Assembly (NCBI RefSeq): GCF_003019035.1
Contig: NZ_CP027447.1
Direction: 5' to 3' (one strand)
From: Escherichia coli
GTDB taxonomy: Bacteria > Pseudomonadota > Gammaproteobacteria > Enterobacterales > Enterobacteriaceae
Length of the DNA stretch: 64,000 nt
Positions 7,760 to 33,100 of this stretch are shown one piece after another (the first letter of the stretch is position 1; each line of letters starts with the position of its first letter). The notes beneath the pieces are model-generated. The model worked only from the letters and a program-made list of their open reading frames with translations, did not search any database and had not been told where the DNA came from. Both the position numbers and the translations under genes were made by a program.

Positions 7760-8122
7760 GGGGCTGATTCTGGATTCGACGGGATTTGCGAAACCCAAGG
7801 TGCATGCCGAGGGGCGGTTGGCCTCGTAAAAAGCCGCAAAAAATAGTCGCAAACGACGAAAACTACGCTTTAGCAGCTTAATAACCTGCTTAGAGCCCTC
7901 TCTCCCTAGCCTCCGCTCTTAGGACGGGGATCAAGAGAGGTCAAACCCAAAAGAGATCGCGTGGAAGCCCTGCCTGGGGTTGAAGCGTTAAAACTTAATC
8001 AGGCTAGTTTGTTAGTGGCGTGTCCGTCCGCAGCTGGCAAGCGAATGTAAAGACTGACTAAGCATGTAGTACCGAGGATGTAGGAATTTCGGACGCGGGT
8101 TCAACTCCCGCCAGCTCCACCA
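7760..8122 (+). ncRNA. ssrA: tmRNA (SsrA, 10Sa RNA)
   Basis: 363 nt from GGGGCTGATTCTGGATTCGACGGG to GGTTCAACTCCCGCCAGCTCCACCA; contains the tag-peptide ORF region (GCAAACGACGAAAACTACGCTTTAGCAGCTTAA) and a tRNA-like 3' end. Confidence 0.95.
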
Positions 8123-9679: not shown

Positions 9680-10399
9680 ATGGAAGATTTAGTTTGTAGT
9701 TGGTCACCAAAGCTGATCGTTGATCTTATAAAAAGTATCGCTTGGCCAGTAGTCGTCCTTCTCATCGGCTTCAGTTTTCGAACTCGAATTTTTGAAGTGG
9801 CACGTTCATTTTTTTCTAAAAACACAGTTTCAGAAATATCAGCTACAGTATCAGGTGTATCGGCAAAATTTGTGACAGCAAAGCAAACAACTGAAGTATT
9901 AGAAAGTGCTAGTACCAATGCAGCGAATTTACCAAAGAGTATGAGTATTGAGGCTATAAGAGCGCGACATGAACAGCATAAAACAGAATTCAGCGAAGAG
10001 TTATATCAATCAATAATTAAACATGCTTCCTCTTTAGATATTAATAATGATGAAAAAGTCAAAATTCTGGCACGTGAATTGTCTATTTATCAAGCTATAA
10101 TACGATATATTGACATTAATAAGATATTATTTCGCTCACAATACAATTTATTTTGTTCTATAAATAGTAATGGTGGTCAAATAAATAAAGAAGACGCCAA
10201 TCTTTTTTTTGAGGCGACCAAGAACAACAATAAAGAAGCATTCTCCGATTGGGATTGGATTAAATATATTGCCTATCCTGTTAGTAATAGCCTTATCTAT
10301 GAAGATAATAATTTTTATAAACTTACAGAGTTGGGAAGATCGTATATAGCTTTTATGTCAAAAAATCCACAACTAATCGACGAACTTGCAAAATTATAG
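9680..10399 (+). CDS. hypothetical membrane-anchored protein (island cargo)
   Basis: 239-aa ORF, AT-rich codon usage, one N-terminal hydrophobic segment (IAWPVVVLLIGFSF); no recognisable family motif. Confidence 0.5.
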   Translation: MEDLVCSWSPKLIVDLIKSIAWPVVVLLIGFSFRTRIFEVARSFFSKNTVSEISATVSGVSAKFVTAKQTTEVLESASTNAANLPKSMSIEAIRARHEQHKTEFSEELYQSIIKHASSLDINNDEKVKILARELSIYQAIIRYIDINKILFRSQYNLFCSINSNGGQINKEDANLFFEATKNNNKEAFSDWDWIKYIAYPVSNSLIYEDNNFYKLTELGRSYIAFMSKNPQLIDELAKL

Positions 10400-12729: not shown

Positions 12730-12762
12730 GCACTTATACATTCTTCGAATGTGTGCGCCCCA
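12730..12762 (+). other. candidate MobQ-type origin of transfer (inverted repeat plus nick-site-like GTGCGCCC)
   Basis: ACATTC-ttcg-GAATGT inverted repeat immediately followed by GTGCGCCC, resembling the RSF1010 oriT arrangement (inverted repeat then TAAGTGCG/CCCT nick region); about 140 bp upstream of mobA. Confidence 0.45.
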
Positions 12763-12901
12763 TAAATGGGGGTTTACTAACGCAGAAAAATAAAAAGTAA
12801 TATTCGCTTTATGCTCAATATTACTTAATCGCTTTTCAAAAAAGCAAATATATTTTTATTATTTTAAAAAGTATGTGTTTCAATATCAGGAGATAAAAAC
12901 A

Positions 12902-14203
12902 ATGGCAATATTTCATATGAGCGCTCAAACAATAACACGCAGCAAGGGGTATAGTAGCGTAGCTGCGGCAGCTTATCGCCACGGCGAAAAGTTAACGGAC
13001 GAACACACAGGAGAGATCCACGACTACAGCAAAAAGAAAGGTGTTTCAGACAGTGTTATATTAATACCTGAAAGCGCAGACCGTAATTTTTTAAAGCCTG
13101 CGTATTTATGGAACATGATAGAAAAAAGCGAAAAAAGAAAAGATGCGCAGTTAGCTCGCGAGTTTAATATTGCGCTTCCTGTCGAAATGACAGATGAACA
13201 AAAAAAGGCGTTAGCAATAGATTTTTGCCAAGAGCATTTTGTAAAAAATGGAATGATTGCTGATATAGCTTTTCACAAGCTCGATAGCGACAACCCACAT
13301 TTTCATGTAATGCTAACCACCCGCAGCCTTACGCCGGACGGTTCAGAGTTCGGACATAAAGTCAGGGAATGGAACAACAAAGAGCAGCTCGAAGGCTGGC
13401 GCAAGAGCTGGGCTGACACAGCGAACGAGCACATGCAAAAGGCTGGCATCGATGCGCATATAGATCACAGATCACTGAAAGAACAAAAAGCAGAGCTTGA
13501 CGCTATCCTCCCCCCTCTCAGAACGATTGAGCAAGAGGCGCAGGCTATCAGCTTAGACAGACCGCCGACTATCCATAGAGGCCATAGCCGCAATCCAGAG
13601 CGACAAGCACGCTTTGACGTGCTCCAAGAAGTGAAAGTATCACAAGAGGAAAAAGCACTTAACCACATTGAACAGAAACAACTTAAGCCCTCGCCGCTGG
13701 CTCCAGCTTCCTCCCCTGCCGCATCTTTGCAAGATGCTACACAAGGAGGCAATGAAAACAACCCGCAAAATAGACTCGGCGAAGTTGGCGAATATCTTCA
13801 ATCTAAACTCAATAAAGAAGATAAAGCAGATCTTAATACTGATAATGAAATCAAAGTTCACACTACTAAAAATAATAGGGAAAGCAGTTCAGCAGCAGCT
13901 ATAGGTTCAACATCAAATATTAATTTAACCGATGAGAAAACAGATAAGAATCTACACTTAACAGAAGCACAAAAAGAAGAGTTAGAGGATTTAGAAAATA
14001 AAGAAGCAGCAGCGAAGAAAAAAGCTTATCTGATGAGCGGAGCTGCCGTTCCTGAACTTTCTCAAGATTACAAAACACTGTCAAAAAGTGAGTTTAAAAA
14101 TAAGCTTCATACAGCTAAACAATCAATATCATTAACTGAAAAGAGATTTAATGAAGAATGTGAAGCATATGATAACAGAAGAAAACGACCAATACCGCGC
14201 TAA
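12902..14203 (+). CDS. mobA: MobA/MobL-family (MobQ-type) conjugative relaxase
   Basis: N-terminus MAIFHMSAQTITRSKGYSSVAAAAYRHGEKL is the characteristic MobA/MobL signature; HFHVML histidine motif present; Ser/Glu/Lys-rich low-complexity C-terminus; AGGAG RBS 8 nt upstream of ATG 12902. Confidence 0.8.
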   Translation: MAIFHMSAQTITRSKGYSSVAAAAYRHGEKLTDEHTGEIHDYSKKKGVSDSVILIPESADRNFLKPAYLWNMIEKSEKRKDAQLAREFNIALPVEMTDEQKKALAIDFCQEHFVKNGMIADIAFHKLDSDNPHFHVMLTTRSLTPDGSEFGHKVREWNNKEQLEGWRKSWADTANEHMQKAGIDAHIDHRSLKEQKAELDAILPPLRTIEQEAQAISLDRPPTIHRGHSRNPERQARFDVLQEVKVSQEEKALNHIEQKQLKPSPLAPASSPAASLQDATQGGNENNPQNRLGEVGEYLQSKLNKEDKADLNTDNEIKVHTTKNNRESSSAAAIGSTSNINLTDEKTDKNLHLTEAQKEELEDLENKEAAAKKKAYLMSGAAVPELSQDYKTLSKSEFKNKLHTAKQSISLTEKRFNEECEAYDNRRKRPIPR

Positions 14204-14563
14204 GTATTTTGCTCATTTTTTATCCCCAATGAATGACTTAGCGTTATATTTACTTTAACTAATTGATACTATTGATTTATTTTCACCTCACGTCGTATCG
14301 TTTATATCGATCAAAATCGACAAAGTGATAGTTAACACCTATCACAACCAATTCATCGATCGATTAAAACAATTAATACACCGATCGATAAACGAGATTT
14401 AATCGTTAAAAACTATCAATATTAAATAATTGATCTGTTATAACGATCATTTTGCTTGAGAGTAGCCCTCCTCATGGTATGCTCGGAGCGTGGAAGACCG
14501 GGCTACTCACCTTGATATCTTCTTGATTAAGCAAAACTATCGCTCTATGAGGAATGAAATTTT

Positions 14564-15058
14564 ATGAAAACCGAAAACATTATTTTTCTTGTTTGGGCAG
14601 TGATTTTTATCCTGATTCTCTGCCAACTTTTTTATTTTGGCCCTAAAAAAAGAAGATACCTCAATACTTATATAGAGGTATTAGATGGTGATGTCCTCTC
14701 ATATGAATGTCAAAATACCGGCGTAGTTATTGATACTAAAAAAAACACAGTACGTATTTTCAATACATATAAGGACAGCACTTTCAAATACGACAACATC
14801 AGGGAAATAAATTATACGCTATCCGAAGCCGGAAAAATTTATAGCACAAGTAATAATCTAAACTCTATGATAAAGTCCGCTGGAGCTAACAGTAATGAAC
14901 AAATGTTAGCTAATCAGCGTTCCGGTATTTTTATACTGACAGATGATATAAAAAATCCTTCATGGAAAATCAATCTACCAATGAAAAACAAAACATCATC
15001 TACCAATCAGGAGATCTGCGATCGATGGCTTCTCATTTTTAAAAAATACGTTTTATAA
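14564..15058 (+). CDS. hypothetical membrane-anchored protein
   Basis: 164 aa; N-terminal hydrophobic helix IIFLVWAVIFILILCQLFYF; AT-rich; no recognisable motif. Confidence 0.5.
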   Translation: MKTENIIFLVWAVIFILILCQLFYFGPKKRRYLNTYIEVLDGDVLSYECQNTGVVIDTKKNTVRIFNTYKDSTFKYDNIREINYTLSEAGKIYSTSNNLNSMIKSAGANSNEQMLANQRSGIFILTDDIKNPSWKINLPMKNKTSSTNQEICDRWLLIFKKYVL

Positions 15059-15090: not shown

Positions 15091-15468
15091 ATGAAAAAAT
15101 TGATTGCGGCAGCATTTATTATTCTCCCTTTAGCAAGTTGTACTGTTTATGGAAACAAATCCATTAAAGACGAAACGCAGCAAAATATAGCCTCTAAAAT
15201 TATAAAAGGTAAAACTACTCAAAAAGATATCCTTCAACTTTATGGAGAACCTCAGACTAAAGAAACTAACGATGGTAAAGAAATGTGGGGATATTCCGTT
15301 ATGTCCGGTGAATCTCAGATTTCAAATTACATACCGGGATTAGCGTTATTGAAGAATAGCAGCACAGCGCACATGAAAGAACTTGAGATCTTGTTTAAAG
15401 GTGATGTAGTTGAACGCTATACCTTTAGACAAACGGCAAGCAAAGCTTCTCGCGGGTTGTTAGATTAA
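15091..15468 (+). CDS. putative lipoprotein
   Basis: Start chosen at ATG 15091 (GGAG RBS upstream); signal peptide MKKLIAAAFIILPLASC with lipobox L-A-S-C; 125 aa. Confidence 0.55.
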   Translation: MKKLIAAAFIILPLASCTVYGNKSIKDETQQNIASKIIKGKTTQKDILQLYGEPQTKETNDGKEMWGYSVMSGESQISNYIPGLALLKNSSTAHMKELEILFKGDVVERYTFRQTASKASRGLLD

Positions 15469-16469
15469 TTTAAATTAAATACCATTTTATCTTTAAAAAG
15501 AAGTTGGAATAGTCCGACTTCTTTTCTATTTTATCAATAACATGCATTATTTATATTAGTGCCTTATGAAATGGCACCTTACTTTTTATATTTCCCTATC
15601 TGGGGGTTTAACCTTTGTTTTTTATTAAAAAAAATTTTGTACTAGTAGTACTAATTAATTAATTTAAAAATTTTTGGTTTTAAGGTTTTGGGGTTTGTGT
15701 TTTAGCGGGGCGGCTTTCAGCCGTAGTAGTTTTCCTCCGAAGGAGGAAATAGTTTTTCTTTAAGCATTCCCCCCCTACCCCCCACGCCAAAAAGGCTAAA
15801 AAAGAGAGATAGGAGATGCTCATTGCGTCTTGAAAATATTCAGAACGTTTCCATTCTGATACTTCCCCCACGACCCACGCAAACACAAATCATGAAACTT
15901 TCAAACAACTCTCGTTTTACTAAAGAGTCTATGCTACTGTTTGTAAATTTTTTAGATTGTGCGATTCAGGTTGGCAGCTACGCATATCCCGGTTAACCGC
16001 TGCCGCAATATTCTAAGTTTCACCAAACACTCGATGTCCTTCGTACTTAGACCTTGATACAACAAGGGTAATATTATATTGCTTTTGTAGATTAAATGTT
16101 TCTGGAAATGGTATTGACATTTTATCTATGTCAAAGTCGGCGAAATTTGTTTAATCATGCAGATTAGAGGCTTCTGGAAGTGGTATTTAATATTAGTTAA
16201 AAGTCGACGAAGCATTTCTAATCTTTTGTATCTTTATATTATATAAATCTATATATAACACCAGTCAATAGATGAAATCAAAAATATTTTAAAAACATGA
16301 CTAGATGAAAAACAAAAAAAGACCAGATTAAACCCCAGTCTCTTTTTTACTTAATATCAGTTATGTTTTTCATATATAGTTCTAAAACGCTCTGTACGCG
16401 ATTTTGAGACGTTTTACACTGGAAGCGGCGTAATCATATAAATAATAAAATAGAATACTGTAATGATTT

Positions 16470-16685: not shown

Positions 16686-17133
16686 AGTTGTTTTGATGAG
16701 GCTATTATTCGAATATCGCTTATGACGATCAACAACTTTTTTAGCAAAAAGTGCTTTTTTAGTTGACTATTTTAAATTAACAGTCATTTAATCACCTTTG
16801 GAAGTTGAACTCATGAGTTCAACTCCTCACCGCTAGTCATGACATTCAAAATGTGCTTATTTTTTAGCCACAATACTTTTTTTATCCCTTTATTGCACCT
16901 CAATGTAAAATACAAATAATTAATATATTTAATAATCAAATGATTAAAGAGTCGATTACAGGGACGCCAGCCAATCATGATTGGACGGTGTAAGGACAAC
17001 ACTAATAAAAACAGGAAGTTAGCAGTCTCAGCAGGACACCGACCAGACGGTGAGGAGACATAAAAGGATACGCAAAGGAGCCGCGGCCCCTGGTGATATG
17101 AAAGCCCACAGATGTGGGCTTTTTCGTTGATGG

Positions 17134-31819: not shown

Positions 31820-33100
31820 ATGAGCAGCAATAAAGAGTTAATGCAGCGCCGTAGTCAGGCAGTTCCTCGTGGCGTTGGGCAAATTCACCCCATTTTCGCT
31901 GACCGCGCGGAAAACTGCCGGGTGTGGGACGTTGAAGGCCGTGAGTATCTTGATTTCGCGGGCGGCATTGCGGTGCTCAATACCGGGCACCTGCATCCGA
32001 AAGTGGTTGCGGCGGTGGAAGCGCAGTTGAAAAAGCTGTCGCACACCTGCTTCCAGGTGCTGGCTTACGAACCGTATCTGGAGCTGTGCGAGATTATGAA
32101 TCAGAAGGTGCCGGGAGATTTCGCCAAAAAAACGCTGCTGGTAACGACCGGTTCTGAAGCGGTGGAGAACGCGGTGAAAATCGCCCGCGCCGCCACCAAA
32201 CGCAGCGGGACCATCGCCTTTAGCGGTGCATATCACGGGCGTACGCACTACACGCTGGCGCTGACCGGCAAGGTAAATCCGTACTCTGCGGGTATGGGGC
32301 TGATGCCAGGCCATGTTTATCGCGCGCTTTATCCTTGCCCGCTGCACGGCATCAGTGAAGATGACGCTATCGCCAGCATCCACCGGATCTTCAAAAATGA
32401 CGCCGCGCCGGAAGATATCGCAGCCATCGTGATTGAGCCCGTTCAGGGCGAAGGCGGTTTCTACGCCGCGACGCCAGCCTTTATGCAGCGTTTACGCGCT
32501 CTGTGTGACGAGCACGGGATCATGCTGATTGCCGATGAAGTGCAGAGCGGCGCGGGGCGTACCGGCACGCTGTTTGCGATGGAGCAGATGGGCGTTGCGC
32601 CGGATCTTACCACCTTTGCGAAATCGATCGCGGGCGGCTTCCCGCTGGCGGGCGTCACCGGGCGCGCGGAAGTGATGGATGCCGTCGCTCCAGGCGGTCT
32701 GGGCGGCACCTATGCCGGTAACCCGATTGCCTGCGTAGCGGCGCTGGAAGTGTTGAAGGTGTTCGAGCGGGAAAATCTGCTGCAGAAAGCCAACGTTCTG
32801 GGGCAGAAGCTGAAAGACGGATTGCTGGCGATCGCCGAAAAACACCCGGAGATCGGCGACGTACGCGGGCTGGGGGCGATGATCGCCATCGAGCTGTTTG
32901 AAGATAGCGATCCCAGCAAACCGGACGCAAAACTCACCGCCGAGATCGTGGCACGCGCCCGCGATAAGGGTCTGATTCTTCTCTCCTGCGGCCCGTATTA
33001 CAACGTGCTGCGCATCCTTGTACCGCTCACCATTGAAGACGCTCAGATCCGTCAGGGTCTGGAGATCATCAGCCAGTGTTTTGCTGAGGCGAAGCTGTAG
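31820..33100 (+). CDS. gabT: 4-aminobutyrate aminotransferase GabT
   Basis: 426 aa; class III aminotransferase; matches E. coli GabT. Confidence 0.95.
   Translation: MSSNKELMQRRSQAVPRGVGQIHPIFADRAENCRVWDVEGREYLDFAGGIAVLNTGHLHPKVVAAVEAQLKKLSHTCFQVLAYEPYLELCEIMNQKVPGDFAKKTLLVTTGSEAVENAVKIARAATKRSGTIAFSGAYHGRTHYTLALTGKVNPYSAGMGLMPGHVYRALYPCPLHGISEDDAIASIHRIFKNDAAPEDIAAIVIEPVQGEGGFYAATPAFMQRLRALCDEHGIMLIADEVQSGAGRTGTLFAMEQMGVAPDLTTFAKSIAGGFPLAGVTGRAEVMDAVAPGGLGGTYAGNPIACVAALEVLKVFERENLLQKANVLGQKLKDGLLAIAEKHPEIGDVRGLGAMIAIELFEDSDPSKPDAKLTAEIVARARDKGLILLSCGPYYNVLRILVPLTIEDAQIRQGLEIISQCFAEAKL

Follow-up and report, generated by a model that had tools for sequence, protein, structure and literature searches.

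To our knowledge, few Dam-dependent epigenetic switches are known in enterobacteria, namely those of pap-like fimbriae, agn43, gtr, opvAB and std. The agn43 (flu) gene has one full OxyR site, whose half-sites are spaced 22 bp apart, along with three GATCs and no alternative sites; this full site lies downstream of the transcription start, where OxyR represses. At the gtr locus of P22 and Salmonella, three OxyR half-sites are spaced 32 bp apart, and OxyR binds either AB or BC; methylation of a GATC pair abolishes binding and binding blocks methylation, which leads to phase variation (Broadbent et al. 2010, PMC2909390). The opvAB operon of Salmonella enterica has half-sites at -148, -116, -75 and -43 that score 10, 8, 10 and 7 (PMC4856963), with spacings of 32, 41 and 32 bp (Cota et al. 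2012, 2016; PMC3350482, PMC4856963). Here, a GATC-rich segment (14255–14455) of an AT-rich genomic island was analysed within a 64-kb stretch of an Escherichia coli chromosome ("the window"). Judged from its sequence, the segment is most likely (a probability of roughly 0.65) an OxyR-type array with embedded Dam sites that acts as an on/off epigenetic switch like those of gtr, opvAB and agn43. The array is predicted to be an architecturally distinct and previously undescribed variant of the Dam/OxyR phase-variation switch.

OxyR-type half-sites and overlapping GATC sites

The repeated unit of the array is the 15-bp OxyR dimer half-site ATAGnTnnnAnCTAT, a consensus confirmed in PMC13050107 and PMC2909390, and five copies that score 8, 10, 8, 9 and 7 of 10 are present. 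Two mirror-image groups of half-sites can be distinguished, with a centre spacing of 31 bp within each. In the left triplet (a-e-b, scores 8/10/8), half-site a (14297–14311, ATCGTTTATATCGAT; 8/10 in 63/63 of the homologous copies described below) is overlapped at its right end by GATC no. 1 (14309–14312), and half-site b (14359–14373, ATCGATTAAAACAAT, 8/10) is overlapped at its left end by GATC no. 2 (14358–14361). Their shared centre, half-site e (14328–14342, ATAGTTAACACCTAT), is a 10/10 match without a GATC and forms the core of the inverted repeat GTGATAG-N7-CTATCAC, which a preliminary description of this DNA had placed at 14325–14345 and which was confirmed there. The right triplet (b'-c-d, scores 5/9/7) has a weak distal member, b' (14371–14385, AATTAATACACCGAT, 5/10), in which only the right half AnCGAT is good; it lies 31 bp from c, and GATC no. 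3 (14383–14386) overlaps its right end. Half-site c (14402–14416, ATCGTTAAAAACTAT, 9/10) is the shared centre of this triplet and likewise has no GATC, and the promoter-proximal half-site d (14433–14447, ATCTGTTATAACGAT, 7/10) is flanked by GATC no. 4 (14432–14435) and GATC no. 5 (14445–14448). A degenerate sixth half-site (14266–14280; 7/10 here and 7–8/10 in most relatives) is found in block 1 (14256–14280), which also holds the vestigial -35 element TTAGTT (TTGGTT in relatives) of a leftward promoter.

The whole array is symmetric about a dyad at 14372, where 52% of 82 pairs are complementary as compared to approximately 27% elsewhere, and this symmetry pairs a with d, e with c, and b with b'. 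The five GATCs overlap the ends of a, b, b' and d at intervals of 49, 25, 49 and 13 bp, in the G-ATCG/CGAT-C register that is also seen in agn43 and gtr. All five had been noted in the preliminary description, and they are real (14309, 14358, 14383, 14432 and 14445), although the third had been given as 14393 through a typing error. Their contexts had been described as mostly palindromic; site 2 is the only true ATCGATCGAT, and the other four read TATCGATCAA, CCGATCGATA, TTGATCTG and ACGATCAT.

Only 24 positions in the 64 kb score 8 or higher against the consensus; four of these are inside the array, including the only 10/10 match in the window. A triplet scoring at least 7, 9 and 7 at 30–32 bp spacing is unique in the window and was obtained in 0/300 shuffles. 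The window as a whole has no excess of GATCs (227 observed, 228.8 expected). When the window was shuffled in blocks so as to preserve its composition, 28% of the shuffles contained at least five GATCs in some 140-bp stretch; for the AT-rich island only, the figure was 2%. Since 28% of the window shuffles reach the same density, the count alone is weak to marginal evidence, and the feature is counted as real because its GATCs and their spacing are conserved across genera. A second GATC cluster of equal density is located in GC-rich DNA (57%), with five sites in 115 bp (32830–32944) and seven in approximately 240 bp (to 33067).

An ad hoc 18-mer, ATCGTTNNNNNCNATCAA, was considered as an island-specific operator shared with the alpA promoter, as 8 of its 14 window matches fall in the segment. 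It was rejected because it consists of the OxyR half-site plus flanking sequence. Elsewhere in the window (25099–25147), two strong OxyR-like half-sites without GATCs, ATAGTTATCATCGAT (9/10) and ATAGTTTGTAATGAT (8/10), are found 21 bp apart, near the canonical arrangement for oxidized OxyR, between a tRNA gene (24849–24924) and the next rightward gene (alpha-amylase-like in RefSeq relatives). This tRNA is called as Met (anticodon CAT) by ARAGORN and its orthologue is annotated as tRNA-Ile in RefSeq; it is presumably ileY, with a lysidine-modified CAU anticodon.

Comparison with described Dam-dependent switches

The P22 gtr region, which reads G-ATCGGTAACAACGAT-C, 17 nt, ATAGATAAAAACTAT, 17 nt, G-ATCGCTTGTATCGAT-C, can be aligned colinearly with both triplets of the array, where the spacing is 31 rather than 32 bp. 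Each has a central, near-perfect ATAG..CTAT site without a GATC and outer ATCG..CGAT variants with GATCs, and both gtr and the array have a GATC pair 13 bp apart around the promoter-proximal site and are associated with horizontally acquired envelope genes. GATCs 4 and 5 of the array share their register with the GATC pairs at half-sites A and C of gtr. Unlike gtr, the array has two mirror-oriented triplets that share a 150-bp dyad, plus the sixth degenerate site. Additionally, gtr site C overlaps the -35 element, whereas the proximal site of the array ends 8 bp upstream of it, and the last GATC is near -45 rather than -33. The right distal site of the array is weak and has a single GATC, again unlike gtr.

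Similarities to opvAB are found in the order and strength of the sites. Half-sites e, b, c and d of the array score 10, 8, 9 and 7 at spacings of 31, 43 and 31 bp, which closely follows the opvAB series given above. Both have a symmetrical GATC pattern with the weakest site directly upstream of the -35 element, and both are horizontally acquired, low in GC and associated with genes for membrane proteins. However, opvAB has a GATC in every half-site and its perfect sites are protected from methylation in the OFF state, while the two best sites of the array have none; the array further includes one more site upstream, and in relatives it serves divergent promoters.

The agn43 region of E. coli K-12 contains GATCGTTTATATCGATC, and its 16-mer ATCGTTTATATCGATC is identical to window positions 14297–14312, i.e. 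site a and the next base; a similar CGATCGATAA context is also shared. With the Lrp/Dam switches of the pap type, the array has in common that GATCs are located inside regulator sites and that GATC no. 5 has an ACGATC context. However, pap has two GATCs 102–103 bp apart within six Lrp sites and additionally depends on PapI and PapB, and the motif of the array is OxyR-like. A switch of the pap type was thus rejected on the basis of the GATC intervals (49, 25, 49 and 13 bp) and the absence of papI/papB-like genes from the island.

Conservation and distribution of the array

The array (approximately 200 bp; searched as 14255–14461) was found in 592 of 5,426 complete E. coli genomes. Four of these carry the same island as the window, next to ssrA, at 99% and 92% identity; the other 588 were recovered in a distant-mode search at approximately 77% identity, and the array was always unannotated. 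Further copies are present in Samsonia, Affinibrenneria and Yersinia pseudotuberculosis, and a pattern scan followed by an nhmmer filter yielded approximately 76 more full copies in metagenome contigs. A serU-island copy is located, for example, at 2001036–2001240 of NZ_CP030111.1, and the locus in strain SCU-301 is at 1302173–1302532 of NZ_CP051751.1. Searches of plasmids and phages at near-identity gave no match to the segment, and three "plasmid" matches in the distant-mode search were discarded, as they are chromosome-sized records and not plasmid copies.

Conservation was counted over 63 distinct homologous array sequences. GATCs 1 to 5 are kept in 63, 60, 62, 61 and 61 of these, respectively, and the centre spacings of 31, 31, 42–43 and 31 bp are essentially invariant, with the 31-bp spacing kept in 60–63 copies. 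Mean entropy is 0.17 bit at positions specified by the OxyR consensus and 1.06 bit at its N positions (Mann-Whitney p=1.4e-9). Islands that are 92% identical differ in the spacers between the GATC-containing blocks, whereas the blocks themselves do not vary. Between islands, the DNA of the array is 77% identical, whereas the downstream proteins are only 29% and the relaxases 44% identical. The array thus outlasts the divergence of the flanking proteins (29–44% identity), which points to a conserved host factor.

The genes on either side of the array were surveyed at 84 loci. On the left, leftward genes encode a lipoprotein of approximately 190 amino acids (68 of 84 loci) and a 101-amino-acid zinc-ribbon membrane protein (43 of 84); on the right, rightward genes encode a DUF4755 protein (52 of 84) and a 125-amino-acid lipoprotein (49 of 84). 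For instance, in strain MCJCHV-1 the array is flanked by a leftward lipoprotein gene and a rightward DUF4755-like gene, in an island located at tRNA-Ser beside the yersiniabactin island. The array is a conserved backbone module of ROD21-like (EARL-related) integrative mobilizable islands, where it is normally flanked by two divergent operons for envelope proteins. The ssrA-type island lacks the left operon, because mobQ abuts the array. A literature search on DUF4755, or on ROD21/serU islands with OxyR, Dam or phase variation, gave no description of the array, and it also goes unmentioned in papers on the EARL family (PMC6035254, PMC8844411).

Predicted promoter and regulated genes

Directly downstream of the array, on the plus strand, a sigma-70 promoter is predicted at 14456–14483, with a -35 element TTGAGA (14456–14461), a 16-bp spacer, a TG (14475–14476) and a -10 element TATGCT (14478–14483), i.e. 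an extended -10 element TG-n-TATGCT. The transcription start is expected near 14490, such that site d would span approximately -57 to -43; 8 bp separate the end of this site from the -35 hexamer. In the copies from E. coli serU islands, Samsonia and Affinibrenneria the promoter hexamers are conserved and the spacer has diverged. Other classes of relatives have a different promoter, TTGCTA-17-TAAAGT, in the same place, and one class has an extended -10 element that would place the last GATC near -33, like gtr. In most classes of relatives the distance from site d to the promoter is fixed. Islands with the left lipoprotein operon have a leftward promoter for it (TTGGTT-17-TGTNAT), which begins 4 nt from block 1; this promoter is degenerate in the window.

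The rightward promoter is predicted to transcribe genes for a DUF4755 membrane protein and a lipoprotein. The first (14564–15058, plus strand) encodes 164 amino acids with an N-terminal transmembrane helix and a PH-like beta-sandwich domain; its structural model has a pLDDT (predicted local distance difference test) of 75, the fold-search matches in the PDB are weak and PH-like, and Pfam and NCBIfam give no function. The second (15091–15468, plus strand) encodes the 125-amino-acid lipoprotein, whose signal peptide contains the lipobox LASC. As gtr, opvAB and agn43 also control envelope proteins, these products were counted in favour of a switch.

Proposed mechanism

The locus has several of the sequence features of a Dam/OxyR switch, namely OxyR-type half-sites at a spacing compatible with OxyR tetramers, overlapping GATCs, and an adjacent predicted promoter. 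The proposal in the preliminary description that a methylation-dependent switch could be located here therefore finds support at the level of sequence, as the GATCs lie within OxyR-type half-sites in a gtr/opvAB-like layout and a conserved promoter follows directly. Sequence comparison shows where the half-sites lie, how well they fit the consensus, how they are arranged, and that they and the promoter elements are conserved; from this we infer the following scheme for OxyR binding, methylation sensitivity, bistability and the ON and OFF states. OxyR tetramers would bind pairs of half-sites 31 bp apart, with the GATC-free sites e and c, which match the consensus best, as fixed and shared anchors. 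At the outer sites a, b, b' and d, Dam methylation would block OxyR and bound OxyR would block Dam, and such mutual exclusion would result in two self-perpetuating, heritable states. In one state, OxyR would occupy e+b and c+d, such that GATCs 2, 4 and 5 are unmethylated and GATCs 1 and 3 are methylated; in the other, OxyR would occupy a+e and b'+c, and the methylation pattern would be reversed. Promoter activity would be set by the occupancy of site d. We lean towards d-bound being the ON state, as at OBS-D of opvAB.

A more elaborate form of this scheme is also conceivable, in which the array is a portable, mirror-symmetric double toggle made up of two back-to-back gtr-like OxyR/Dam triplets around 14372, with two divergent promoters in most islands. 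A shift of the tetramers by one register (31 bp) would then turn one envelope operon on and the other off. This form is considered possible but doubtful, and we know of no described Dam/OxyR switch with a bidirectional, reciprocal layout.

Several observations weigh against an OxyR/Dam switch. With half-site b' being weak (5/10), the toggle on the right is less evident than that on the left. Unlike OBS-A and OBS-C of opvAB, the two best sites lack a GATC, so OxyR could stay bound in both states. Since the transcription start is only predicted and site d is clear of the -35 element, activation and repression are indistinguishable. The Yersinia copy has an intact array and yet its downstream gene is missing and its promoter is altered. 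GATC density by itself is non-significant at the scale of the window. Finally, ATC-N9-GAT is a generic box of LysR-type regulators, so the sites may be bound by another member of that family.

Alternative explanations

This last point corresponds to an alternative that we regard as unlikely, in which the boxes are bound by a different regulator, such as another host LysR-type transcriptional regulator (LTTR) or an island-encoded protein like the AlpA/SEN1998-like excision factor, and form an ordinary operator array that may or may not be Dam-sensitive. The generic LTTR motif is ATC-N9-GAT or T-N11-A, and the boxes of the array fit it; however, they match the OxyR-specific positions (T6, A10, ATAG/CTAT) beyond T-N11-A, and one site is identical to agn43. 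HdfR is a known Dam-sensitive LTTR, whose binding at std is blocked by GATC methylation (PMC6735912), but the architecture of std differs, as its three GATCs fall within 25 bp. The array and AlpA homologues occur together, and an 18-mer related to its boxes, ATCGCTTATGACGATCAA, is found in the alpA promoter of the ssrA and Yersinia islands. Elsewhere the alpA-promoter element reads TTGAACGTCATAAGCGATC, which scores only 6/10 and differs in its GATC, and because this element scores just 6–7/10 and varies between islands, the link from alpA to the same factor is weak. The 77% identity of the array, as compared to island proteins that are down to 29–52% identical, also favours a conserved host factor. 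For IHF, FNR, Fur, CRP, TrpR and Lrp, a comparison of consensus sequences made by eye only gave no convincing match in the segment. It is less probable still that the array is an H-NS nucleation cluster that silences an AT-rich acquired promoter and in which the GATCs are incidental. The island is low in GC (31–37%), related islands encode H-NS paralogues and a truncated H-NS, and 13 of the 74 island matches to TCGWTWAATT (with two or fewer mismatches) fall inside 210 bp. However, specificity at two mismatches is low, and just one match has one or no mismatch; moreover, H-NS nucleation does not explain why conservation follows the OxyR consensus base by base and leaves the N positions free, why the spacing is exactly 31 bp and why the GATCs are invariant. 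H-NS may add a further level of control.

It is very improbable that the segment is a replication origin under Dam/SeqA control, a partition centromere or a second oriT. An origin or partition-like site had been proposed in the preliminary description, and AT-rich DNA, clustered GATCs and many short repeats in both orientations are indeed present, as is a DnaA box with one mismatch (TTATCCCCA, 14220–14228). This box is not part of the conserved module, and distant copies lack it; the proposal was not upheld, as no conserved DnaA box, no pairing of iterons with a Rep protein and no partition NTPase were found. The GATC intervals are not on one helical face and are out of helical phase for SeqA, and a promoter is attached at a fixed distance. 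Some relatives carry repL, but in Yersinia it is 1.1 kb away with iterons of its own, and Pfam and NCBIfam scans found no rep or par genes on the ssrA island. An RSF1010-like oriT is already present 5' of mobQ (12739–12766), which argues against a second one. A plasmid partition centromere was rejected because the downstream genes encode a transmembrane-anchored PH-like protein and a lipoprotein and not an NTPase/centromere-binding operon. There is equally little likelihood that the segment acts as a nucleic-acid structure, through hairpins in single-stranded DNA (an Frpo-like single-strand promoter in a leading region) or as an RNA leader. Both single strands fold better than shuffled sequences (z = -5.0 and -4.1) and form five local hairpins, but these simply mirror protein sites that are palindromic, relatives show 4–8 uncompensated mismatches between the arms of the long repeat at 14402–14447, and the segment has no match to an Rfam family. 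The 9-bp stem GAGTAGCCC-N31-GGGCTACTC of the preliminary description, which would be part of such a structure, is present at 14460–14468/14500–14508 and, as described, ends 55 bp before the ATG of the next gene at 14564. However, it is outside the conserved feature and is itself not conserved, with two to three of its nine pairs broken in 92%-identical relatives and the stem absent from more distant copies; its 5' arm falls within the promoter spacer, upstream of the predicted transcription start. The hairpin was therefore rejected as a regulatory structure.

The genomic island that carries the array

The window includes ssrA (the transfer-messenger RNA gene, 7760–8122), MicA and tRNA genes, and the island of approximately 9 kb is located directly to the right of ssrA and has 31–43% GC, as compared to approximately 51% in its flanks. 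From left to right, the island contains an integrase gene, a cargo open reading frame (ORF), six small leftward ORFs, mobQ, the GATC-rich segment, the DUF4755 gene and the lipoprotein gene, followed by approximately 900 bp of non-coding DNA and a leftward alpA-like gene, beyond which is the chromosomal gene ypjA. The location of the array downstream of mobA, as first described, was borne out: the upstream gene, mobQ (12875–14203, plus strand; RefSeq-style ATG at 12902), encodes a MobA/MobL-family (MobQ) relaxase (PF03389, E=2e-63). An oriT-like signature is located 5' of mobQ (12739–12766), in the divergent region that separates it from the six small leftward ORFs, and consists of the inverted repeat ACATTCTTCGAATGT followed by GTGCGCCCC. 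We take this signature to be RSF1010/R1162-like, with GTGCGCCCC resembling the MOBQ nick region TAAGTGCGCCCT. As it carries both a relaxase gene and an oriT-like signature, the island is considered an integrative mobilizable element.

By gene content, the island is related to the ROD21-like (EARL) islands (Pina-Iturbe et al. 2018, 2022; PMC6035254, PMC8844411), although as a relative and not as a typical member. The shared core consists of a P4-like integrase, a SEN1998/AlpA-like excision factor and a MobA/MobL relaxase. The AlpA-like protein of the ssrA island is 52–69% identical to those of the E. coli serU and Yersinia islands; identity among SEN1998-like excision factors within the EARL family is 48–100%. 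Typical EARL islands are integrated at tRNA-Asn and carry type IV pilin genes and TraD. Unlike these, the island adjoins ssrA, no pilin genes are found among its annotated or Pfam-scanned genes, and the left lipoprotein operon is absent.

The cargo slot after the integrase varies between similar islands and looks like a hotspot for defence genes. In the window it encodes a hypothetical 239-amino-acid protein (9680–10399), and in two other islands it encodes an LA2681-family HEPN protein (L002, 1662–3401) and a reverse-transcriptase-domain protein (L003, 1802–3400). An E. coli serU-type island with the array (L009, 34542–36648) also encodes RepL, a DUF4756 protein and two H-NS paralogues, one truncated and one full-length, all of which are absent from the ssrA island. 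Two imperfect direct repeats of approximately 45 bp, approximately 72 bp apart (16100–16225; TTCTGGAAATGGTATTGACATTTTA...GTCGGCGAA and TTCTGGAAGTGGTATTTAATATTA...GTCGACGAA), are found in the 900 non-coding bp that separate the lipoprotein gene from alpA, a region in which relatives carry repL and iterons. In the Yersinia island (L007, 10130–10230), five direct repeats of approximately 18 bp, similar to TTCTTCGTTATTGTAGAT, are located directly 5' of repL and are typical iterons. Because the Yersinia repL has its own iterons, the replication module of the island family is separate from the GATC array.

Upstream of alpA, a 19-bp element, GTTGATCGTCATAAGCGAT (alpA sense strand; window 16704–16732 and L007 11986–12003), overlaps the predicted alpA -35 element TTGATC, which itself contains a GATC. 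The element is invariant between the E. coli and Yersinia islands despite diverged flanks, i.e. it is a phylogenetic footprint. It could be an operator for AlpA or Int, or part of a Dam-sensitive promoter.

Implications

If the array is an OxyR/Dam switch, it would add to the Dam-dependent switches one that is widespread and travels on mobilizable genomic islands, with carriers that include the serU island of extra-intestinal pathogenic E. coli and islands of Yersinia and plant-associated Pectobacteriaceae. Uncharacterized envelope proteins would be under its control, which would provide a starting point for the function of the DUF4755 protein and the lipoprotein. Under the scheme, specific GATCs would be undermethylated, for which existing PacBio or Nanopore data could be examined. 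The six-site mirror architecture could additionally serve as a test of how OxyR tetramers choose between alternative pairs of half-sites. Finally, if the array were a double toggle, this island family, which includes the serU island (approximately 11% of complete E. coli genomes), would have two heritable cell-surface states, which may bear, for instance, on phage resistance or conjugation exclusion.

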